NCBI GenBank assembly: GCA_021827985.1
Contig: JAKATL010000001.1
Location: 45,108-109,107, forward strand
Reading direction: 5' to 3'
DNA length: 64,000 nucleotides
From: a bacterium
Lineage (GTDB): Bacteria; Chloroflexota; Dormibacteria; Aeolococcales; Bog-877
Below, piece by piece: positions 7,966 to 14,375 of the stretch. Positions within the stretch are counted from its first letter, which is position 1, and each line of letters starts with the position of its first letter. The position numbers were made by a program, and so were the translations under genes. Under the pieces are notes generated by a model, which saw only the letters and a list, made by a program, of their open reading frames with translations, made no database searches and was not told the origin of the DNA.

Positions 7966-8994
7966 CTAGAAGTGCCGGAAGCCCCGGCCCGACAGCGCCA
8001 CCTCGGGCCCATCGGGGTGCTCCAGGAGGCGCACGCCGTCCCCCGGGCACACCGTTCCGACGACCGAGACGCCGGCTCCTCCCGACAGTGAACTGAGGTT
8101 CCGCGCCAGCGGTTCGGGGAGGCAGACGAGAAGCTCGTAGTCCTCTCCCCCCGCAGCACCCAGTTGGAGCAACTCCGCCGGAAAGAAGTGCTCCAACTCG
8201 TGCTCCAGCGGCAGGTGATCGGCCCAAAGCTCCAACTGGCACGAGCTGGCCGCCGCCAGCCGGGCGGCGTCGACCAGAAGTCCGTCACTCAGATCGGTCA
8301 TGGCGTGCGCTCCAGCGGCCCGGAGCCGCTGGCCCTCGGCGAGGCGGGCGACGGGAGCCACCAGGCGACGGCGCCAACTCTCCGGCGGGACCCTCCCAGT
8401 CTCCAGGAGACGGAGGGCAGCGGCAGCCCCACCCAGGCGCCCGGTGACCGCCACCAAGTCGCCGGGCAGGGCACCAGAGAGGCGCACCGCCTCGCCCGGG
8501 GGGCCGCTGCCCAGAACGGTGACGGCGATCGTCAGGGGGCCATCCGTGGAGCTGACGTCGCCCCCGGCCAGCAGCGCCCCGTCCCGGCGGGCTGCCTCCA
8601 CCATCCCCTCCTGAATGCCCAGAATGGTGCCCTCGAAGGTGTCGGGAGAACAGATCAGGCAGGCGACCCCGAGGTCGGCACGAAAACCCATCGCAGCCAG
8701 ATCCGAGGCCGCGGCACTCCAGGCCTTGACTCCCACCTCCCAGGGGCTCTGAAAGGAGCGCAGGAAGTCAACCCTCTCCACCAGCGAGTCCGTGGTGACG
8801 GCCAGCGCCCGTCCATCCAGATCCCAGACGGCAGCGTCATCGCCCGGCCCGACCGCCAGCCTCCCATCGCCGGTGGCCAGCCCCACCAGCGCCGCCAGCA
8901 ACCCCGTCTCACCGACTGCGCTGAGGCGCCGGCCGTGTGGCGGTGCCCAGCCGCGCTGATCCGGACGGGGCTCCGGGATGGCCGGTTCAGCCAA
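7966..8994 (-). CDS. thiL: Thiamine-monophosphate kinase ThiL
   Basis: GPGDDAAV, TTDSLVE.VDF, SDLAAMG, GGD, DLSDGL, GGEDYEL; TTG start overlapping thiG stop inferred. Confidence 0.92.
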   Translation of the reverse strand: MAEPAIPEPRPDQRGWAPPHGRRLSAVGETGLLAALVGLATGDGRLAVGPGDDAAVWDLDGRALAVTTDSLVERVDFLRSFQSPWEVGVKAWSAAASDLAAMGFRADLGVACLICSPDTFEGTILGIQEGMVEAARRDGALLAGGDVSSTDGPLTIAVTVLGSGPPGEAVRLSGALPGDLVAVTGRLGGAAAALRLLETGRVPPESWRRRLVAPVARLAEGQRLRAAGAHAMTDLSDGLLVDAARLAAASSCQLELWADHLPLEHELEHFFPAELLQLGAAGGEDYELLVCLPEPLARNLSSLSGGAGVSVVGTVCPGDGVRLLEHPDGPEVALSGRGFRHF

Positions 8995-9778
8995 CCGGCA
9001 GTCCAGCCGCGGGAGAACTCGCCCCGAAACCGCGCCGCCCCTCGCCAGCCTCCCCAGCCAGGCCGGCCCAATGGGCCCGGCGCCCGGCCTCGACCGCGGC
9101 CGCGAAGGCCCGCGCCATCTCCACGGGATTCCTGGCCCGGGCGATCCCCGTGTTAACCAGGACTCCGGCCGCACCCCATTCCATGACCCGGAGAGCGTCA
9201 GAGGGAGCGCCCAAGCCGGCGTCCACGATCACCGGTACAGGGCATTCCTCGATGATGAGACGGATGTTGTGGGGGTTCAGCACCCCGAGAGTGGAGCCTA
9301 TGGGCGCCGCGCCGGGCATCACCGCGGCCGCCCCCGCCTCAGCCAGCCGCAACGCCAGCGCCACATCGTCACTCGTGTACGGAAGAACTGTATAGCCCTC
9401 GGCCACCAGCCTCGAGGTGGCCTCGAAGGTCGCCAGGGGGTCCGGCAAGAGGCTGGCTTCGTGCCCCACCACCTCCACCTTGATGAAGTCCGAGAGGCCG
9501 GCCGCCCGGGCGAGGTGCGCGAGCCGGATCGCCTCCTCGGCTGAGCCGGCGCCTGCGGTGTTGGGCAGGAGGTGATAGCGGGCGAGGTCCAGCCCCTCAA
9601 GCTCCGACCTGCGATCGCCGTCGAGGTGGAGCCGGCGTACGGCGAGGGTGATCATCTCCGCCCCGGAGGCGGCGATCGATTGGGCCAGCACCTGCGCCGA
9701 CGGGAACTTCCCGGTCCCGTGGATGAGGCGCGAGCCAAGGGTGGCGGCCCCCAGGTGCAGCCTGTCCGCTTCCGTCAT
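8987..9778 (-). CDS. thiG: Thiazole synthase ThiG
   Basis: SRLIHGTGKF, LPNTAG, FIKVEV, LLPDP, VIVDAGLG, VLVNT. Confidence 0.95.
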   Translation of the reverse strand: MTEADRLHLGAATLGSRLIHGTGKFPSAQVLAQSIAASGAEMITLAVRRLHLDGDRRSELEGLDLARYHLLPNTAGAGSAEEAIRLAHLARAAGLSDFIKVEVVGHEASLLPDPLATFEATSRLVAEGYTVLPYTSDDVALALRLAEAGAAAVMPGAAPIGSTLGVLNPHNIRLIIEECPVPVIVDAGLGAPSDALRVMEWGAAGVLVNTGIARARNPVEMARAFAAAVEAGRRAHWAGLAGEAGEGRRGFGASSPAAGLPVG

Positions 9779-9779
9779 C

Positions 9780-10658
9780 TCACCCTCCTCCCACGAAGTG
9801 GACCACCTCGACCACGGCCCCCTCGCGCACCACATCGGTGGCCAGTTGCTCCCCGGGGATGATCCGCCCATCGACCTCCACGGCGACCCCTGAGGGCCCT
9901 ACCCCCAGCCGGGCCAAGAGCTCCATCACCGTCTCACCGGGTGGTGACTTGCGGGGTTCGCCATTCAACTTGATCCAGCGCCATGAGGTGGCCGCCTGGG
10001 CCTCCCGCCGGAGCCTCTGGGCGGCCAGCCTAGGGTCTGGAGCCGAACAGACGGCACGCACTACCGCAACCATGTCTGCCCCGGCCTCGATAGCCGAGGC
10101 ACCCTCGTCGAGTCCCCCTATGGCCACCACCGGGACCCGGGAGACCTGCGCGGCGGCGGTGACCTGCTGGAACCCCACCGCGACGCCCTCTGGCTTGGTC
10201 GGGGTGGCTCGCACTGGTCCGGCGGCGATGTAGTCCAGGGGAAGCAGCTGAGCCTGCAGGGCCTGCTCCGAATTGTGGGTCGAGAGCCCAATCAGCGGCC
10301 GTTCCCCGAGCCGCTCTCTGGCCTCCTGGACGCCGGTGTCATCCTGACCGAGGTGGACGCCATCCGTCCGCGCTGCCAGGGCTAGGTCGATGTGGTCGTT
10401 GACCAGGAAGAGGGCCCCGCCCCGCCGGCAGATCGCCTGGAGGGAACGGGCCAGATCCACCAGATCTGTCCATGATTCGCGCTTGCGACGCAGCTGCACC
10501 AGATCGGCTCCTCCCGCCACCGCCGCCTGGACCAGGCCGGGCAGGCTACCCAAGGGGCTCAAGTCATCAGTGACCACGTAGAGCCGCGAGTCCTGGAGGC
10601 GGGTGCGCAGCTGTTCCGATCCGAGCTCGAAATCCGTGTCCAGCTCGCCCATGGGCAT
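9780..10658 (-). CDS. thiE: ThiE (thiamine-phosphate synthase) fused to C-terminal ThiS sulfur carrier
   Basis: ThiE motifs (QLR, VNDH, GVHLGQDD, IGLSTH, TPTK, VAIGG) continue in frame into IKLNGE...VAVEVDG.II...VEVVHFVGGG-stop. Confidence 0.92.
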   Translation of the reverse strand: MPMGELDTDFELGSEQLRTRLQDSRLYVVTDDLSPLGSLPGLVQAAVAGGADLVQLRRKRESWTDLVDLARSLQAICRRGGALFLVNDHIDLALAARTDGVHLGQDDTGVQEARERLGERPLIGLSTHNSEQALQAQLLPLDYIAAGPVRATPTKPEGVAVGFQQVTAAAQVSRVPVVAIGGLDEGASAIEAGADMVAVVRAVCSAPDPRLAAQRLRREAQAATSWRWIKLNGEPRKSPPGETVMELLARLGVGPSGVAVEVDGRIIPGEQLATDVVREGAVVEVVHFVGGG

Positions 10659-10683
10659 CGCCCCATTCTAGGTGGAGTTGAGA

Positions 10684-13128
10684 TCAGTCCCCCCAGCGCG
10701 GTTCGCGCGGGACCCTGGGAAGGATCTGGGTCACTAGTTCGTAGTTGAGCACCTGCAGTCGGTCGGCAACCTGCTCAACAGTAAGCTCCGCACCCTGCTG
10801 TCTCCCGATCAGCACCACCTCATCGCCCCGAGCCACCTGCGGGTCCCCGGTAACGTCCACCATGGCCATGTCCATGCACACGTCGCCGGCTAGGGGGTGT
10901 TCCTGACCGCGGATGAGTACCGATCCCCAGGTGGTTGGACCTCTTCGGAAGCCGTCACCATATCCCACCGGTATGGTGGCGATCCGCGACCGCCTGGGGG
11001 CGCGGAAGCGGTCCCCGTACCCCACGTACTCCCCCTCGTCCACCCAGCGGACCTGGGCGACAGTGGTCTTGAAGGCCAGCGCCGGCCGTCGGCGACGCCC
11101 GTCCGCAGTCCGCAGCCCCAGAAGCTCACCCCCCAGCCGCACCATCTCGAAGCGGGCATCCGGCCGGGTGACCCAGCCGGAGGAGCTGGCGACGTGGCGG
11201 AGCCGAAACGGCGCGTCACCGACCTCATCCAGGGCCCTGTGGAAGCGCTGCAGCTGGACCCCGGCCGCCGCCGCGTCCTCCCCCTTTCTCAGGTGGGTAT
11301 AGATCCCCTCGAGATCCACCGCGCCCGCCGCGAAGTCCACCAGCTGGCGCACGCCCTCCGGGGGGACCCCCAGCCGGCTCATCCCGGTGTCGACCTTGAG
11401 GTGGGCGATCGCTCGTCTTCCGAACCGCCCCCCGGCGGCGGCGAGCGCCTCGAGCACCTCGCGATCAAACGCGGTGACGGTGAGTCCCATCCGCACCGCG
11501 AGCTCGACCTGGTCGGGCGGGGTGTAGCCGAGCACCAGGCAGGGCGAGGTGATGCCGGACTCCCGCAACTCCGCCGCTTCGGCCAGGGTTGCCGTGGCGA
11601 CCCATGAGGCTCCAGAACCAAGGGCGGCCCGGGCCACCTGGACGGCCCCGTGGCCGTAGGCGTCCGCCTTGACCACGGCCATGAGCTTCACCCCGGCCAG
11701 CTGGTCGAGCACCTCTCTGACGTTCTCGGCCACGGCCGCCAGGTCGACCTCCACCCAGGTTGGCCGCCGGGGTGACCGGAATCGCAGGACCGCCCGACCC
11801 GGCTCCGGGCGCACCATGGGAGTGCCCGGCGGGGCCAGAGCTGTCACCAGCCGCTCCATCCTGGACCCGGAGGTCCCCTTGATCAGCACGCTCCCACCGT
11901 CCTTCAGGATCTGGCGGGCGCGGCCCTGGGCACTGAGGAAGCCGATTCCGCCGTCCCCTCCGGGAGCCGCTGACGGGAGCACGCGGGCCACCTCGGCGTA
12001 TGGCCAGCGGGGAAGCCTTCGGGCCTCCCGGCCGCCGCCGAGCAGCGCTAGGCGGGGCGGGGGCAGGCGGCCGAGAGCCGAGCCGGCCAGGCCCAGCGAC
12101 CCCGGGGACATGTCGAAGGAGTCGTCCAGCAGCCGACCCGTCCCCCGTGTCGGCAGAAGCCGCAGGCGGCCTGGGAGCGGAGCCACCTCCGCCAGACCCT
12201 CAACAGCTCGATCGAGGTCCTCACCGAGGGCGAGTAGGCACCCCACGGCGGCCCCGAACCCAACCTCAGCCAGGCGGGGATGGAGATCTGTCCGCACTGT
12301 CCACGTCCGCTCCCCTGCCCTCACCCGGCAGGGCCACCGTTCGGGCCAGGCCGAGCCCGCACCCTCCGGGCCGACCTCAACGTCAGCTCCGCTTCCCAGC
12401 GGGCCGAACCAAATCGCCGACGACCCCCAGCGTCCGAGCAGCGCAGCCGACTGGAGGGGCGCTACCAGCCTGGGCATCGGGCCCCACATGCGCCAGACCT
12501 GAGCCGCCAGCGCCCGCGACGAGCTCCAGTACAGGCTCCTAGCGTCATGGAGCGAGGTTAGACAGACCAGCTCCGGCTGGATCATCCGCGCGAGCCGCCT
12601 CTCCTCGAGCACCCCATCGGCCACCACCTCCATCACCGCGGGGCCGGTTAGCTGGCCCTTGGCCTCGGAGAGCGCCAGGGGGATCCCCAGCGAGTCGTTG
12701 CGATCCCCATTGGCCACCACCCGCTCCCCGGAGGCCCTCCCCCACGCCGCCACCAGGCAGGCCTGTGCGGTGCTCTTGCCCAGGCTGCCGGCCACCGCCA
12801 CCGTCCTCAGCTGGCGCACCCGCCACTGGCCGAAGACCTCCAGCGCCTCCCGGACGTCGGGAACCAGGATCGCCGTCTGCTCCAGGTCGGGAGGCAAGCC
12901 GAGCTCCTCCTGGGGACGGTCCACGAGGATGCCCAGGGCGCCGCGGCGGAGTGCGTCCCCCACATGGGCATGGCCGTCGCCGGTAGCGCTCCTGAGAGCG
13001 GCAAAGAGCTCCCCACCACTGAGGTTGCGGGTGTCGTGCCCGATGGCTGTGAACGCCCGCGGGCCCCAGGACAGGACCTCGGGCCGGACGCTTGAGAGCG
13101 CCTCCAGGAGCTCGTCCAGCTCCAGCAT
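10684..13128 (-). CDS. alr: MurF-like domain fused to alanine racemase
   Basis: N-terminal Mur ligase-like part (DTR, GELFAAL, DGHAH, GSLGKST); C-terminal Alr (VVKADAYGHG, HLKVDTGMSRLG, VGYG, CMD, NYE). Confidence 0.88.
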   Translation of the reverse strand: MLELDELLEALSSVRPEVLSWGPRAFTAIGHDTRNLSGGELFAALRSATGDGHAHVGDALRRGALGILVDRPQEELGLPPDLEQTAILVPDVREALEVFGQWRVRQLRTVAVAGSLGKSTAQACLVAAWGRASGERVVANGDRNDSLGIPLALSEAKGQLTGPAVMEVVADGVLEERRLARMIQPELVCLTSLHDARSLYWSSSRALAAQVWRMWGPMPRLVAPLQSAALLGRWGSSAIWFGPLGSGADVEVGPEGAGSAWPERWPCRVRAGERTWTVRTDLHPRLAEVGFGAAVGCLLALGEDLDRAVEGLAEVAPLPGRLRLLPTRGTGRLLDDSFDMSPGSLGLAGSALGRLPPPRLALLGGGREARRLPRWPYAEVARVLPSAAPGGDGGIGFLSAQGRARQILKDGGSVLIKGTSGSRMERLVTALAPPGTPMVRPEPGRAVLRFRSPRRPTWVEVDLAAVAENVREVLDQLAGVKLMAVVKADAYGHGAVQVARAALGSGASWVATATLAEAAELRESGITSPCLVLGYTPPDQVELAVRMGLTVTAFDREVLEALAAAGGRFGRRAIAHLKVDTGMSRLGVPPEGVRQLVDFAAGAVDLEGIYTHLRKGEDAAAAGVQLQRFHRALDEVGDAPFRLRHVASSSGWVTRPDARFEMVRLGGELLGLRTADGRRRRPALAFKTTVAQVRWVDEGEYVGYGDRFRAPRRSRIATIPVGYGDGFRRGPTTWGSVLIRGQEHPLAGDVCMDMAMVDVTGDPQVARGDEVVLIGRQQGAELTVEQVADRLQVLNYELVTQILPRVPREPRWGD

Positions 13129-14375
13129 CAGGGGTGGGCCCTTCCCTCCAGCCAGAGCCGGGCCGCCTCCTGGGTCTCCACCAATTCGTCCGCGACCTCG
13201 GAGGCTAGCAGTCCGGCGCGGCCCCTCCGGTCAGCGAGAAGGGTTCCCGCGGCGGCGTGCAGAAAGACTCCGGCCCGGGCCGCGTCTGCGGCGCCATGCC
13301 CCTGGGCCATCAGGGCCCCGATCAATCCCGCCAGGACGTCCCCGGCACCCCCAATGGCCAGGGCGGAGGTGGCGTGGGCGTCGCGCCAAAGTTCGCCCGA
13401 GGGCTCGGCCACCAGGCTCCCGGCACCCTTCAAAACCACCACCGCCGAGAGTCCCGCCGCCAGTTTGCGGGCCGCCGCCTCACGATCCGCCTGGACTGCC
13501 GCGGCGGTCGTCCCCAGAAGCCGGGCGGCCTCCAGGGGGTGGGGGGTGAGCACCGATCCAGGTGGCAACAGGGTGCGCAGGTCAGGGGTGCGGCTCACGG
13601 CGTTGAGGGCATCGGCATCGGCCACCAACCCCGCCCGGGCGGAGCGGAAAACGGTGGCCACCAGTTCGCCCACCCCCGCACTGTCGCCGAGGCCCGGGCC
13701 TGCCACCACCACCTCCCCCTGTACGTCCGCCAAGTGCCGGGCGAGGTCGGAGGCGGAGTAGTGTCCGGACTCCACCGGAAGGGGCACTCGGATCACCTCC
13801 GGCGGCAACCCTGCGCCAGGATGATCAATCGCCACGACACACTTGACCTTTCCCGCCCCCCCGCGGAGTGCCCCCCGGCAGGCGAGTTCCGCCGCCCCGG
13901 GAAATTGAGGGCTCCCCGCCACCACCAGGACCGTACCGAACGTGCCCTTGTGACCCGCCGGTGGCCGCGAGGGCAGGACCACCCGCTCGGGCACCGGCAA
14001 GGGGAGGCTGCTCGCCGTCATCACGGCCACGGCCACCGCGACACCGGCGTCGTGGGTGAGGGAGATCTCCAGCCCGGGAACTGGGCGCCCGAGCACCAGC
14101 GCCTCCGGTGCTCCCCCGCGGCGATGGCGGACCGAGATCTGCGGGTAGAGCGGGAGAGGCAGGCCGAGACTGCCGTGCACCTTCCGCACGGCCTCCTTGG
14201 CTGCCCAACGCACGGCCAAGCGCTCCGGCCGACCTGCGCAGTACTCGACCTCTTCCGGGCTGAACAACTTCTCGGCGAAGCGGGGCCTCCTCGCCAGGAG
14301 CCGGGCGATGCGGGCCACCTCGGCGACGTCAACACCTGTGGCCACGGGCGGGAGCCGGCTCCCTGGCAGGATCAC
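13128..14375 (-). CDS. acpS: Holo-ACP synthase AcpS fused to NAD(P)HX dehydratase NnrD
   Basis: GVDVAEVARI...RWAAKEA...SLTHD followed in frame by HKGTFG.VLVVAGS..FPGAA, DADALN, LTPH..EAARL, VLKG, GGAGDVLAG. Confidence 0.9.
   Translation of the reverse strand: MILPGSRLPPVATGVDVAEVARIARLLARRPRFAEKLFSPEEVEYCAGRPERLAVRWAAKEAVRKVHGSLGLPLPLYPQISVRHRRGGAPEALVLGRPVPGLEISLTHDAGVAVAVAVMTASSLPLPVPERVVLPSRPPAGHKGTFGTVLVVAGSPQFPGAAELACRGALRGGAGKVKCVVAIDHPGAGLPPEVIRVPLPVESGHYSASDLARHLADVQGEVVVAGPGLGDSAGVGELVATVFRSARAGLVADADALNAVSRTPDLRTLLPPGSVLTPHPLEAARLLGTTAAAVQADREAAARKLAAGLSAVVVLKGAGSLVAEPSGELWRDAHATSALAIGGAGDVLAGLIGALMAQGHGAADAARAGVFLHAAAGTLLADRRGRAGLLASEVADELVETQEAARLWLEGRAHP

Follow-up and report, generated by a model that had tools for sequence, protein, structure and literature searches.

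In this study, we analysed a stretch of 64,000 nucleotides (hereafter the window) from a bacterium of the GTDB lineage Chloroflexota; Dormibacteria; Aeolococcales; Bog-877 (NCBI GenBank assembly GCA_021827985.1, contig JAKATL010000001.1, positions 45,108 to 109,107 of the forward strand). In the window, the thiamine-phosphate synthase ThiE, the final enzyme in vitamin B1 assembly, and the small sulfur-carrier protein ThiS are encoded by one open reading frame (ORF), written here as thiE~thiS. The fusion is real and conserved, both of its domains carry the signatures of their families, the thiazole synthase gene thiG is coupled to it, and the same kind of fusion recurs in other bacteria.

Results

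The thiE~thiS ORF occupies positions 9780-10658 of the window on the minus strand and reads through 292 amino acids (aa) without an internal stop. ThiE is N-terminal and ThiS is C-terminal, which is the ThiE/ThiS architecture of Henry et al. (2016). The parts of the gene, with the evidence on which each is placed, are as follows:

9780..10658, minus strand: thiE~thiS fused ORF, 292 aa, stop codon TGA at 9780-9782 (both domains found; junction reproduced in independent assemblies)
9993..10583, minus strand: ThiE TIM-barrel domain, aa 26-222, including the C-terminal helix 209-222 (PF02581, TIGR00693, PDB matches, Foldseek)
9981..9992, minus strand: four-residue junction A223-T-S-W226, with the codon of Trp226 at 9981-9983 (Trp invariance, fixed segment length, predicted local distance difference test [pLDDT] about 96)
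9783..9980, minus strand: ThiS beta-grasp sulfur-carrier domain, aa 227-292, with a free C-terminal Gly-Gly-Gly (PF02597, TIGR01683, PDB ThiS matches, secondary structure predicted by AlphaFold2 [AF2])

No in-frame ATG or GTG is present in codons 200-240. The sole in-frame alternative start in this region is TTG231, which immediately precedes the invariant Asn-Gly, and initiation there would delete strand beta-1 of ThiS. At the other end of the gene, close homologues of 290 aa begin at the second ATG (10652), and for this reason the true start of thiE~thiS may be Met3 rather than the first ATG.

Metagenome runs from mine drainage and sediment contained the exact thiE~thiS sequence. Logan contigs from four runs (X1, X4, X5 and X9) of three studies covered the junction without a stop or an indel at a word depth of about 5 to 125, and the sole difference in the ORF among these contigs was one substitution at 10235 in one run. 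Neither a missed stop nor a frameshift, the errors whose presence the preliminary description of the locus had allowed for, was seen at the junction in these contigs. A search of 5.8 billion proteins revealed about 60 clusters, with 47-100% identity to the window protein, in which both Pfam domains lie in one protein of 290-299 aa.

The N-terminal domain matches the TMP-TENI family over its full length (PF02581, aa 26-203, E 1.6e-53, 181.2 bits against a cutoff of 27) and scores 172.9 bits with the NCBIfam model for thiE (TIGR00693, cutoff 145.1). Its closest sequences in the PDB are the ThiE proteins of Mycobacterium tuberculosis (3o63) and Bacillus subtilis (1g4t/2tps), at about 1e-32. The thiazole tautomerase TenI (B. 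subtilis 1YAD/3QH2) belongs to the same fold family; however, a TenI identity of the domain could be ruled out, given that 1yad matched at only E 4.5e-15 against about 1e-32 for the ThiE structures and that the TenI model NF005819 gave 79.4 bits, far under its cutoff of 251. The active site of B. subtilis ThiE, which we take to comprise Q57, R59, K61, N92/D93, D112, S130, T156, T158, K159 and G188, aligns with an offset of 8 to residues Q55, R57, K59, N87/D88, D107, S126, T152, T154, K155 and G181 of the window protein. Across 62 aligned fusions, Q55, R57, K59, D88, D107 and K155 are invariant, and S126, T152 and T154 are invariant or nearly so.

Foldseek placed the solved ThiE structures 2tps, 1xi3 and 3o63 at the top, with target-normalised template modelling (TM) scores of 0.81-0.91, so the predicted TIM-barrel fold is that of solved ThiE. 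The query-normalised TM was no higher than 0.65, the solved structures spanning the ThiE domain alone, and the Foldseek search found no solved chain that covers both ThiE and ThiS. Stand-alone ThiE from B. subtilis (2TPS/1G4T), M. tuberculosis (3O63) and Pyrococcus furiosus (1XI3) therefore shares the fold and the active-site residues with the window protein but, in its solved structures, lacks a ThiS domain.

The C-terminal domain is likewise complete. It matches the ThiS family over its full length (PF02597, aa 229-292, E 1.5e-11, 45.1 bits against a cutoff of 22.5), and the NCBIfam model for thiS (TIGR01683) aligns over positions 1-64 of 64 with 60.4 bits (cutoff 37.45). The preliminary description had a complete ThiE running into ThiS without a stop, and with both domains above their Pfam and NCBIfam cutoffs in a single ORF this reading holds. 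PDB ThiS matches are 2cu3, 1f0z, 2k5p and 1tyg, with end-to-end alignment to ThiS of Thermus thermophilus, Escherichia coli and B. subtilis. Identity to the free-standing ThiS of a relative (locus L086) is 52%. Residues N232, G233, E261 and E284 of the ThiS core are invariant across the 62 aligned fusions, as is the terminal Gly-Gly (62 of 62). The window protein ends in ...VVHFVGGG, after which comes TGA; the Gly-Gly is thus free, as had been noted before.

Stand-alone ThiS proteins (T. thermophilus 2CU3/2HTM, E. coli 1F0Z/1ZUD, B. subtilis 1TYG) are about 65 aa long, end in Gly-Gly and align with the fused domain over its full length, but the N-terminus of the window ThiS, unlike theirs, is the direct continuation of the last ThiE helix. 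The B. subtilis ThiS chain that was crystallised with ThiG (1tyg_B) carries 23 extra N-terminal residues. By analogy with this chain, it is plausible that an N-terminal extension on ThiS, even a bulky one, is compatible with docking on ThiG.

The AF2 model, based on a 62-sequence alignment, has a mean pLDDT of 91.9 and a predicted TM score (pTM) of 0.88. In this model the ThiE barrel passes via helix 209-222 straight into the beta-beta-alpha-beta-beta fold of ThiS, the junction has a pLDDT of about 96, and only residues 1-9 and the three terminal glycines are disordered. The segment 200-235 is of identical length in all 53 Dormibacterota clusters and measures 27 to 59 residues in the nine fusions from other lineages. 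Trp226 is present in 53 of 53 Dormibacterota fusions and in none of the other nine, and the unfused ThiS of L086 has no counterpart of it. No Met is conserved at the junction in the 53 homologues. Taken together, the short junction of fixed length, the invariant Trp226 and the high pTM suggest that in the Dormibacterota the ThiE and ThiS domains pack as a rigid, fixed unit and not as beads on a string.

The fused clusters come from metagenome-assembled genomes (MAGs) of Candidatus Dormibacterota/Dormibacteria, and their proteins, where named at all, are called "thiamine phosphate synthase". The neighbourhood of these relatives matches that of the window, namely glmS, acpS/nnrD, (murF-like)alr, thiE~thiS, thiG, thiL, tsaE, tsaB, rimI and tsaD, and thiG directly follows thiS or thiE~thiS in L001-L004, L051 and L086. 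Judged from these sequences and their neighbourhood, the window belongs to a Dormibacterota genome and the thiE~thiS fusion is a lineage trait of the Dormibacterota. Three states of the three genes were seen at this locus:

L086, Dormibacterota-type neighbourhood: thiE, thiS and thiG all separate, with a GTGA overlap of thiE and thiS
The window and most relatives, Dormibacterota-type neighbourhood: thiE~thiS fused
L040 (6390-7079) and L043 (6597-7649), "Chloroflexi bacterium" CF_121 and CF_12 MAGs: thiE separate, thiS~thiG fused in frame

In the thiS~thiG proteins of L040 and L043 (...VYFVGGGAADGSDPFVVGG...RLIHGTGKF) the Gly-Gly is internal.

To survey the gene order more widely, one genome per GTDB species was scanned and the loci obtained were searched with our own domain profile hidden Markov models; at least 600 stretches were obtained and 80 loci kept, a sample that shows occurrence and not frequency. 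Among the loci listed, thiE immediately followed by thiS is a widespread order, seen both in cyanobacteria (among them Cyanothece, Nostoc, Microcoleus, Nodosilinea and Vulcanococcus) and in some Bacillota (Marinicrinis, Paenibacillus senegalensis and Shouchella). In L006, L008, L009, L011 and L013, which represent several cyanobacteria and Marinicrinis, thiE and thiS share a reading frame and only one stop codon separates them, and one point mutation or readthrough of this codon would give ThiE~ThiS; elsewhere the genes overlap by a few bases. ThiS of Cyanothece (L006) ends in GGGNGQ.

ThiE~ThiS proteins were also found in several Paenibacillus species, P. humicola, P. xanthanilyticus and P. 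agaridevorans among them; the cyanobacterium-like protein P0128 is a further example, as are several metagenomic proteins of low GC content. In a tree of the ThiE domain the fused forms are scattered among unfused relatives, which suggests that ThiE~ThiS arose at least about five separate times, a count that is approximate given that the tree is a neighbour-joining tree without support values.

Other arrangements of these domains were also encountered. A metagenomic protein of 275 aa (P0199) has the reverse order, ThiS-ThiE, with an internal Gly-Gly, and in an Eremiobacteraceae MAG (L019, 337-1247) thiS lies immediately upstream of thiE as a separate gene. A Solirubrobacterales MAG (L060, 3600-5348, minus strand) has a 583-aa ORF in which ThiS (aa 244-327) and ThiG (aa 332-580) are preceded by about 240 residues and which may be a three-part fusion. 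The protein P0067 (440 aa) has a Pfam record of ThiG plus TMP-TENI, but by eye appears to consist of two tandem TMP-TENI domains; P0065 (464 aa) is recorded with NMO (PF03060) plus TMP-TENI.

The features that flank the fused gene in the window are as follows:

8987..9778, minus strand: thiG (thiazole synthase), 263 aa, start ATG at 9778 (PF05690, 8.5e-91; ThiG likewise of 263 aa at this position in L001 and L002)
7966..8916, minus strand: thiL (thiamine-phosphate kinase), start GTG at 8916 or slightly downstream (TIGR01379, 227.5 bits; same position in relatives)
9783..9791, minus strand: codons GGA GGA GGG of Gly290-292, which also read as the Shine-Dalgarno sequence GGAGG (5 nucleotides upstream of the thiG ATG; read from the sequence)
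10659..10683, minus strand: 25-nucleotide spacer between the murF-like/alr gene and thiE~thiS (length insufficient to hold a riboswitch)

The thiG ATG at 9778 lies one base past the TGA of the fusion, the spacing reported in the preliminary description. Because the Gly codons of ThiS double as a GGAGG 5 nucleotides before this ATG, translation of thiG is coupled to that of the 3' end of thiE~thiS; L086 and L004 are arranged in the same way. A scan of the whole window at the Rfam gathering thresholds returned no family, and this result, together with the 25-nucleotide spacer, indicates that thiE~thiS has no riboswitch, including one for thiamine pyrophosphate (TPP) or hydroxymethylpyrimidine pyrophosphate (HMP-PP). 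The thi genes here travel within a cluster of housekeeping genes.

Discussion

A ThiE/ThiS architecture has been catalogued before. It is listed for 1 of 983 diverse prokaryote genomes in Table S3A of Henry et al. (2016, BMC Genomics 17:473, PMC4921024), with fig|717606.6.peg.1174 as the example (PMC4921024); taxid 717606 is Paenibacillus curdlanolyticus YK9. The same table gives ThiS/ThiG in 23 and ThiS/ThiF in 20 of the 983 genomes, and Table S3B gives 16 architectures that involve ThiE (Henry et al., 2016; PMC4921024). A full-text search found no paper that discusses a ThiE-ThiS fusion in its main text, the supplementary table being the sole record, and we found neither a functional study of any ThiE~ThiS protein in the literature nor anything relevant on thiamin in Dormibacter. 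Dozens of fused proteins are held by NCBI, JGI and UniProt as "thiamine phosphate synthase". The belief expressed in the preliminary description that the architecture was undescribed is therefore not tenable: it is annotated in databases, although it is rare and not common. In a search of 1.84 billion representatives at 50% identity, 10,197 proteins matched at E <= 1e-10, and about 8 of the 150 best matches were ThiE~ThiS. The architecture is rare but recurrent, already catalogued and uncharacterised, to which the Dormibacterota form is a lineage-wide addition.

The Paenibacillus proteins (fig|717606.6.peg.1174; P0068 of P. humicola; P0272/WP_187101200.1 and P0273/WP_108995706.1 of P. agaridevorans) resemble the window protein in domain order, in their free Gly-Gly and in being followed by thiG, but their identity to it is about 40% and they have a separate origin in the ThiE tree. 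Their linker is long and variable, whereas the Dormibacterota junction consists of four residues, is fixed in length and has an invariant Trp. Moreover, the Paenibacillus fusion lies within a full thiC-thiF-thiE~S-thiG-thiO-thiD operon, whereas that of the window is surrounded by housekeeping genes, with thiG and thiL as its only thi neighbours and no riboswitch. In the ThiS/ThiG and ThiS/ThiF fusions, ThiS is likewise covalently joined to a protein of the thiamin pathway, and ThiS~ThiG is found at this very locus in L040 and L043. However, in those fusions ThiS is N-terminal, its partner is a direct one and its Gly-Gly is internal, while in the window ThiS is C-terminal, its Gly-Gly is free and its partner, ThiE, is not a direct one. 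ThiE is a frequent fusion partner in the thiamin pathway, as in THI6 (yeast ThiE-ThiM, 3NL2), but in THI6 and other ThiE fusions the partner is an enzyme and not a protein sulfur carrier.

We consider it probable that thiE~thiS encodes a bifunctional polypeptide that originated when an overlapping stop/start between thiE and thiS was lost, and in which both domains work and ThiS docks on ThiG. In this scheme, thiE and thiS would have been adjacent and translationally coupled before loss of the overlapping stop/start joined them. The N-terminal domain, to judge by its conserved residues, would be a catalytically competent thiamine-phosphate synthase, the enzyme that couples HMP-PP with thiazole phosphate. 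A ThiF/MoeB-type enzyme whose gene lies outside the window would adenylate and thiocarboxylate the free Gly-Gly of the ThiS domain, and the charged domain would then dock on ThiG, the product of the next gene. The fusion would yield ThiE and ThiS in a 1:1 ratio and, since ThiS must dock on ThiG to deliver sulfur, would place ThiE beside the enzyme that makes its thiazole substrate. It is most likely that both domains work and that the ThiS domain brings ThiE to ThiG. The charging of ThiS while fused, the formation of a complex with ThiG and any kinetic benefit are what we infer. Any benefit of the fusion would be modest, given that unfused and ThiS~ThiG relatives exist. Because related loci show all three states, the fusion appears easy to form: at gene boundaries this tight, where a stop and a start overlap, a small indel or a lost stop codon would suffice to create or to shift it.

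Several observations weigh against this bifunctional reading. The fusion is dispensable for the pathway, and could be neutral, given that relatives with the same neighbourhood have separate genes (L086) or thiS~thiG (L040 and L043). In 31 of the 53 Dormibacterota fusion clusters (P0018-P0058 range), 1-5 residues extend past the Gly-Gly; the tails past Gly-Gly-Gly include xDHG, HG, SGD and MARG, and the window protein has none. In L004 (1190-1214) the stop lies further downstream, and thiG begins at an overlapping GTG. Because the tail covers the Gly-Gly, ThiS of these relatives would be unable to act without C-terminal trimming. Furthermore, searching all ORFs of the 64-kb window with Paenibacillus queries (phmmer) revealed no ThiF, ThiO, ThiC or ThiD, only ThiG being matched, so that neither the completeness of the pathway nor the lack of a second, free ThiS can be deduced from the window. 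Finally, the pTM of 0.88 is a prediction.

The alternative that survives best, although we regard it as clearly less likely, is that the fusion is neutral, a tolerated accident at an overlapping stop/start that persists because the N-terminus of ThiS is free to carry cargo. The presence of separate, ThiE~ThiS and ThiS~ThiG states at the same locus in related genomes would be expected in that case. So would the overall rarity of the fusion, which Henry et al. list for a single genome out of 983 and which accounts for about 8 of the 150 top-scoring clusters at 50% identity, and in the many genomes that have thiE and thiS in the same frame with one stop between them a single mutation is enough. 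Nevertheless, Dormibacterota proteins with as little as 47% identity still carry the fusion, their junction does not vary in length and the fusion-specific Trp226 is invariant. This pattern points to selection on the junction after the fusion had formed, and packing as a fixed unit, which it suggests together with the high pTM, exceeds what a neutral tether would require.

At the other extreme, ThiE, ThiS and ThiG might form a metabolon that channels the labile thiazole tautomer/carboxy-thiazole phosphate from ThiG to ThiE and makes the tautomerase TenI unnecessary, as the preliminary description envisaged. The geometry is plausible, since docking on ThiG is obligatory for ThiS and the carboxylated thiazole phosphate is a substrate of ThiE (title of PDB 3o15), and the fixed junction, the invariant W226 and the pTM of 0.88 suggest a defined architecture; the repeated origin of the fusion is also in keeping with it. 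However, unfused genes or ThiS~ThiG serve in relatives that share this neighbourhood, and the long, variable linkers of other lineages (27 to 59 residues for the 200-235 segment) fit tolerance better than precise channelling. In addition, ThiS is consumed once per thiazole while ThiE is catalytic, and a 1:1 ratio has no obvious advantage. Most bacteria that contain ThiG lack TenI, and the replacement of TenI need not be invoked for this reason. On balance we think such a metabolon unlikely.

A more elaborate version, which we offer with still greater reserve, is that the rigid ThiE-ThiS module predicted by the model seeds a ThiE-ThiS-ThiG assembly that hands the thiazole intermediate to ThiE and, in addition, that ThiS is made as a precursor whose Gly-Gly is exposed by a ubiquitin-style C-terminal peptidase. 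The frequent tails of 1-5 residues and the ThiS~ThiG fusions at the same locus suggest that such processing could be routine.

It seems improbable that ThiS is not synthesised, or does not function, within the fused protein, being instead produced from an internal start, released by post-translational cleavage, or decayed or regulatory while a separate ThiS does the work. The in-frame TTG at codon 231 could serve as such a start, other ThiS/MoaD-like proteins are processed by proteases, and the tails after Gly-Gly in relatives imply some processing activity. Yet neither an ATG or GTG nor a well-spaced Shine-Dalgarno sequence precedes ThiS, initiation at TTG231 would cost strand beta-1, and the 53 homologues share no junction Met; a separate internal start was on these grounds rejected as unlikely. 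The invariance of the Gly-Gly, N232, G233, E261 and E284 shows that the domain is not decaying, and the junction is predicted to be ordered and not a cleavable loop. As for an artefact of assembly or sequencing, in which a stop was missed or a frameshift joined two separate genes, its only prompt is the existence of unfused relatives, and it can be dismissed given the intact junction in four runs of three studies and the fusion in about 60 independent clusters from NCBI, JGI, ENA and Logan.

The locus bears on the use of gene fusions to infer protein partners: a sulfur carrier joined to the enzyme two steps downstream hints that ThiG and ThiE, both late enzymes of the thiamin pathway, may form an assembly that is organised by ThiS. 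For structural studies of a ThiE-ThiS-ThiG complex, the Dormibacterota protein would make a suitable natural construct, with a junction that seems rigid. This junction, and the signs that the C-terminus is processed in relatives, most deserve further attention. At the same time, the occurrence of separate, ThiE~ThiS and ThiS~ThiG states in one conserved neighbourhood indicates that fusions form and shift easily and cautions against inferring function from every fusion. There is also a practical consequence for annotation, in that the database name "thiamine phosphate synthase" hides the ThiS domain and pathway reconstructions of Dormibacterota may wrongly report thiS as missing.

Other genes of the neighbourhood

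Two further composite proteins are encoded upstream of thiE~thiS. The first, of 814 aa (10684-13128, minus strand), ends in a complete alanine racemase. The N-terminal part, about 445 aa long, matches MurF over the first approximately 196 residues only (TIGR01143, 102.6 bits against a cutoff of 288.6), and the model for bifunctional MurF/alanine racemase (NF008897) matches the protein weakly, with 41 bits; the ligase part may be degenerate. This long murF-like/alr form is kept in L001, L002 and L086, and L003, L040 and L043 have alanine racemase alone. The second protein, of 415 aa (13128-14375, minus strand), is a fusion of the holo-ACP synthase AcpS (aa 11-120) with the NnrD/YjeF C-terminal NAD(P)HX dehydratase (aa 132-399). 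The AcpS-NnrD fusion is common to all relatives examined, with AcpS occupying the usual place of the NnrE epimerase.

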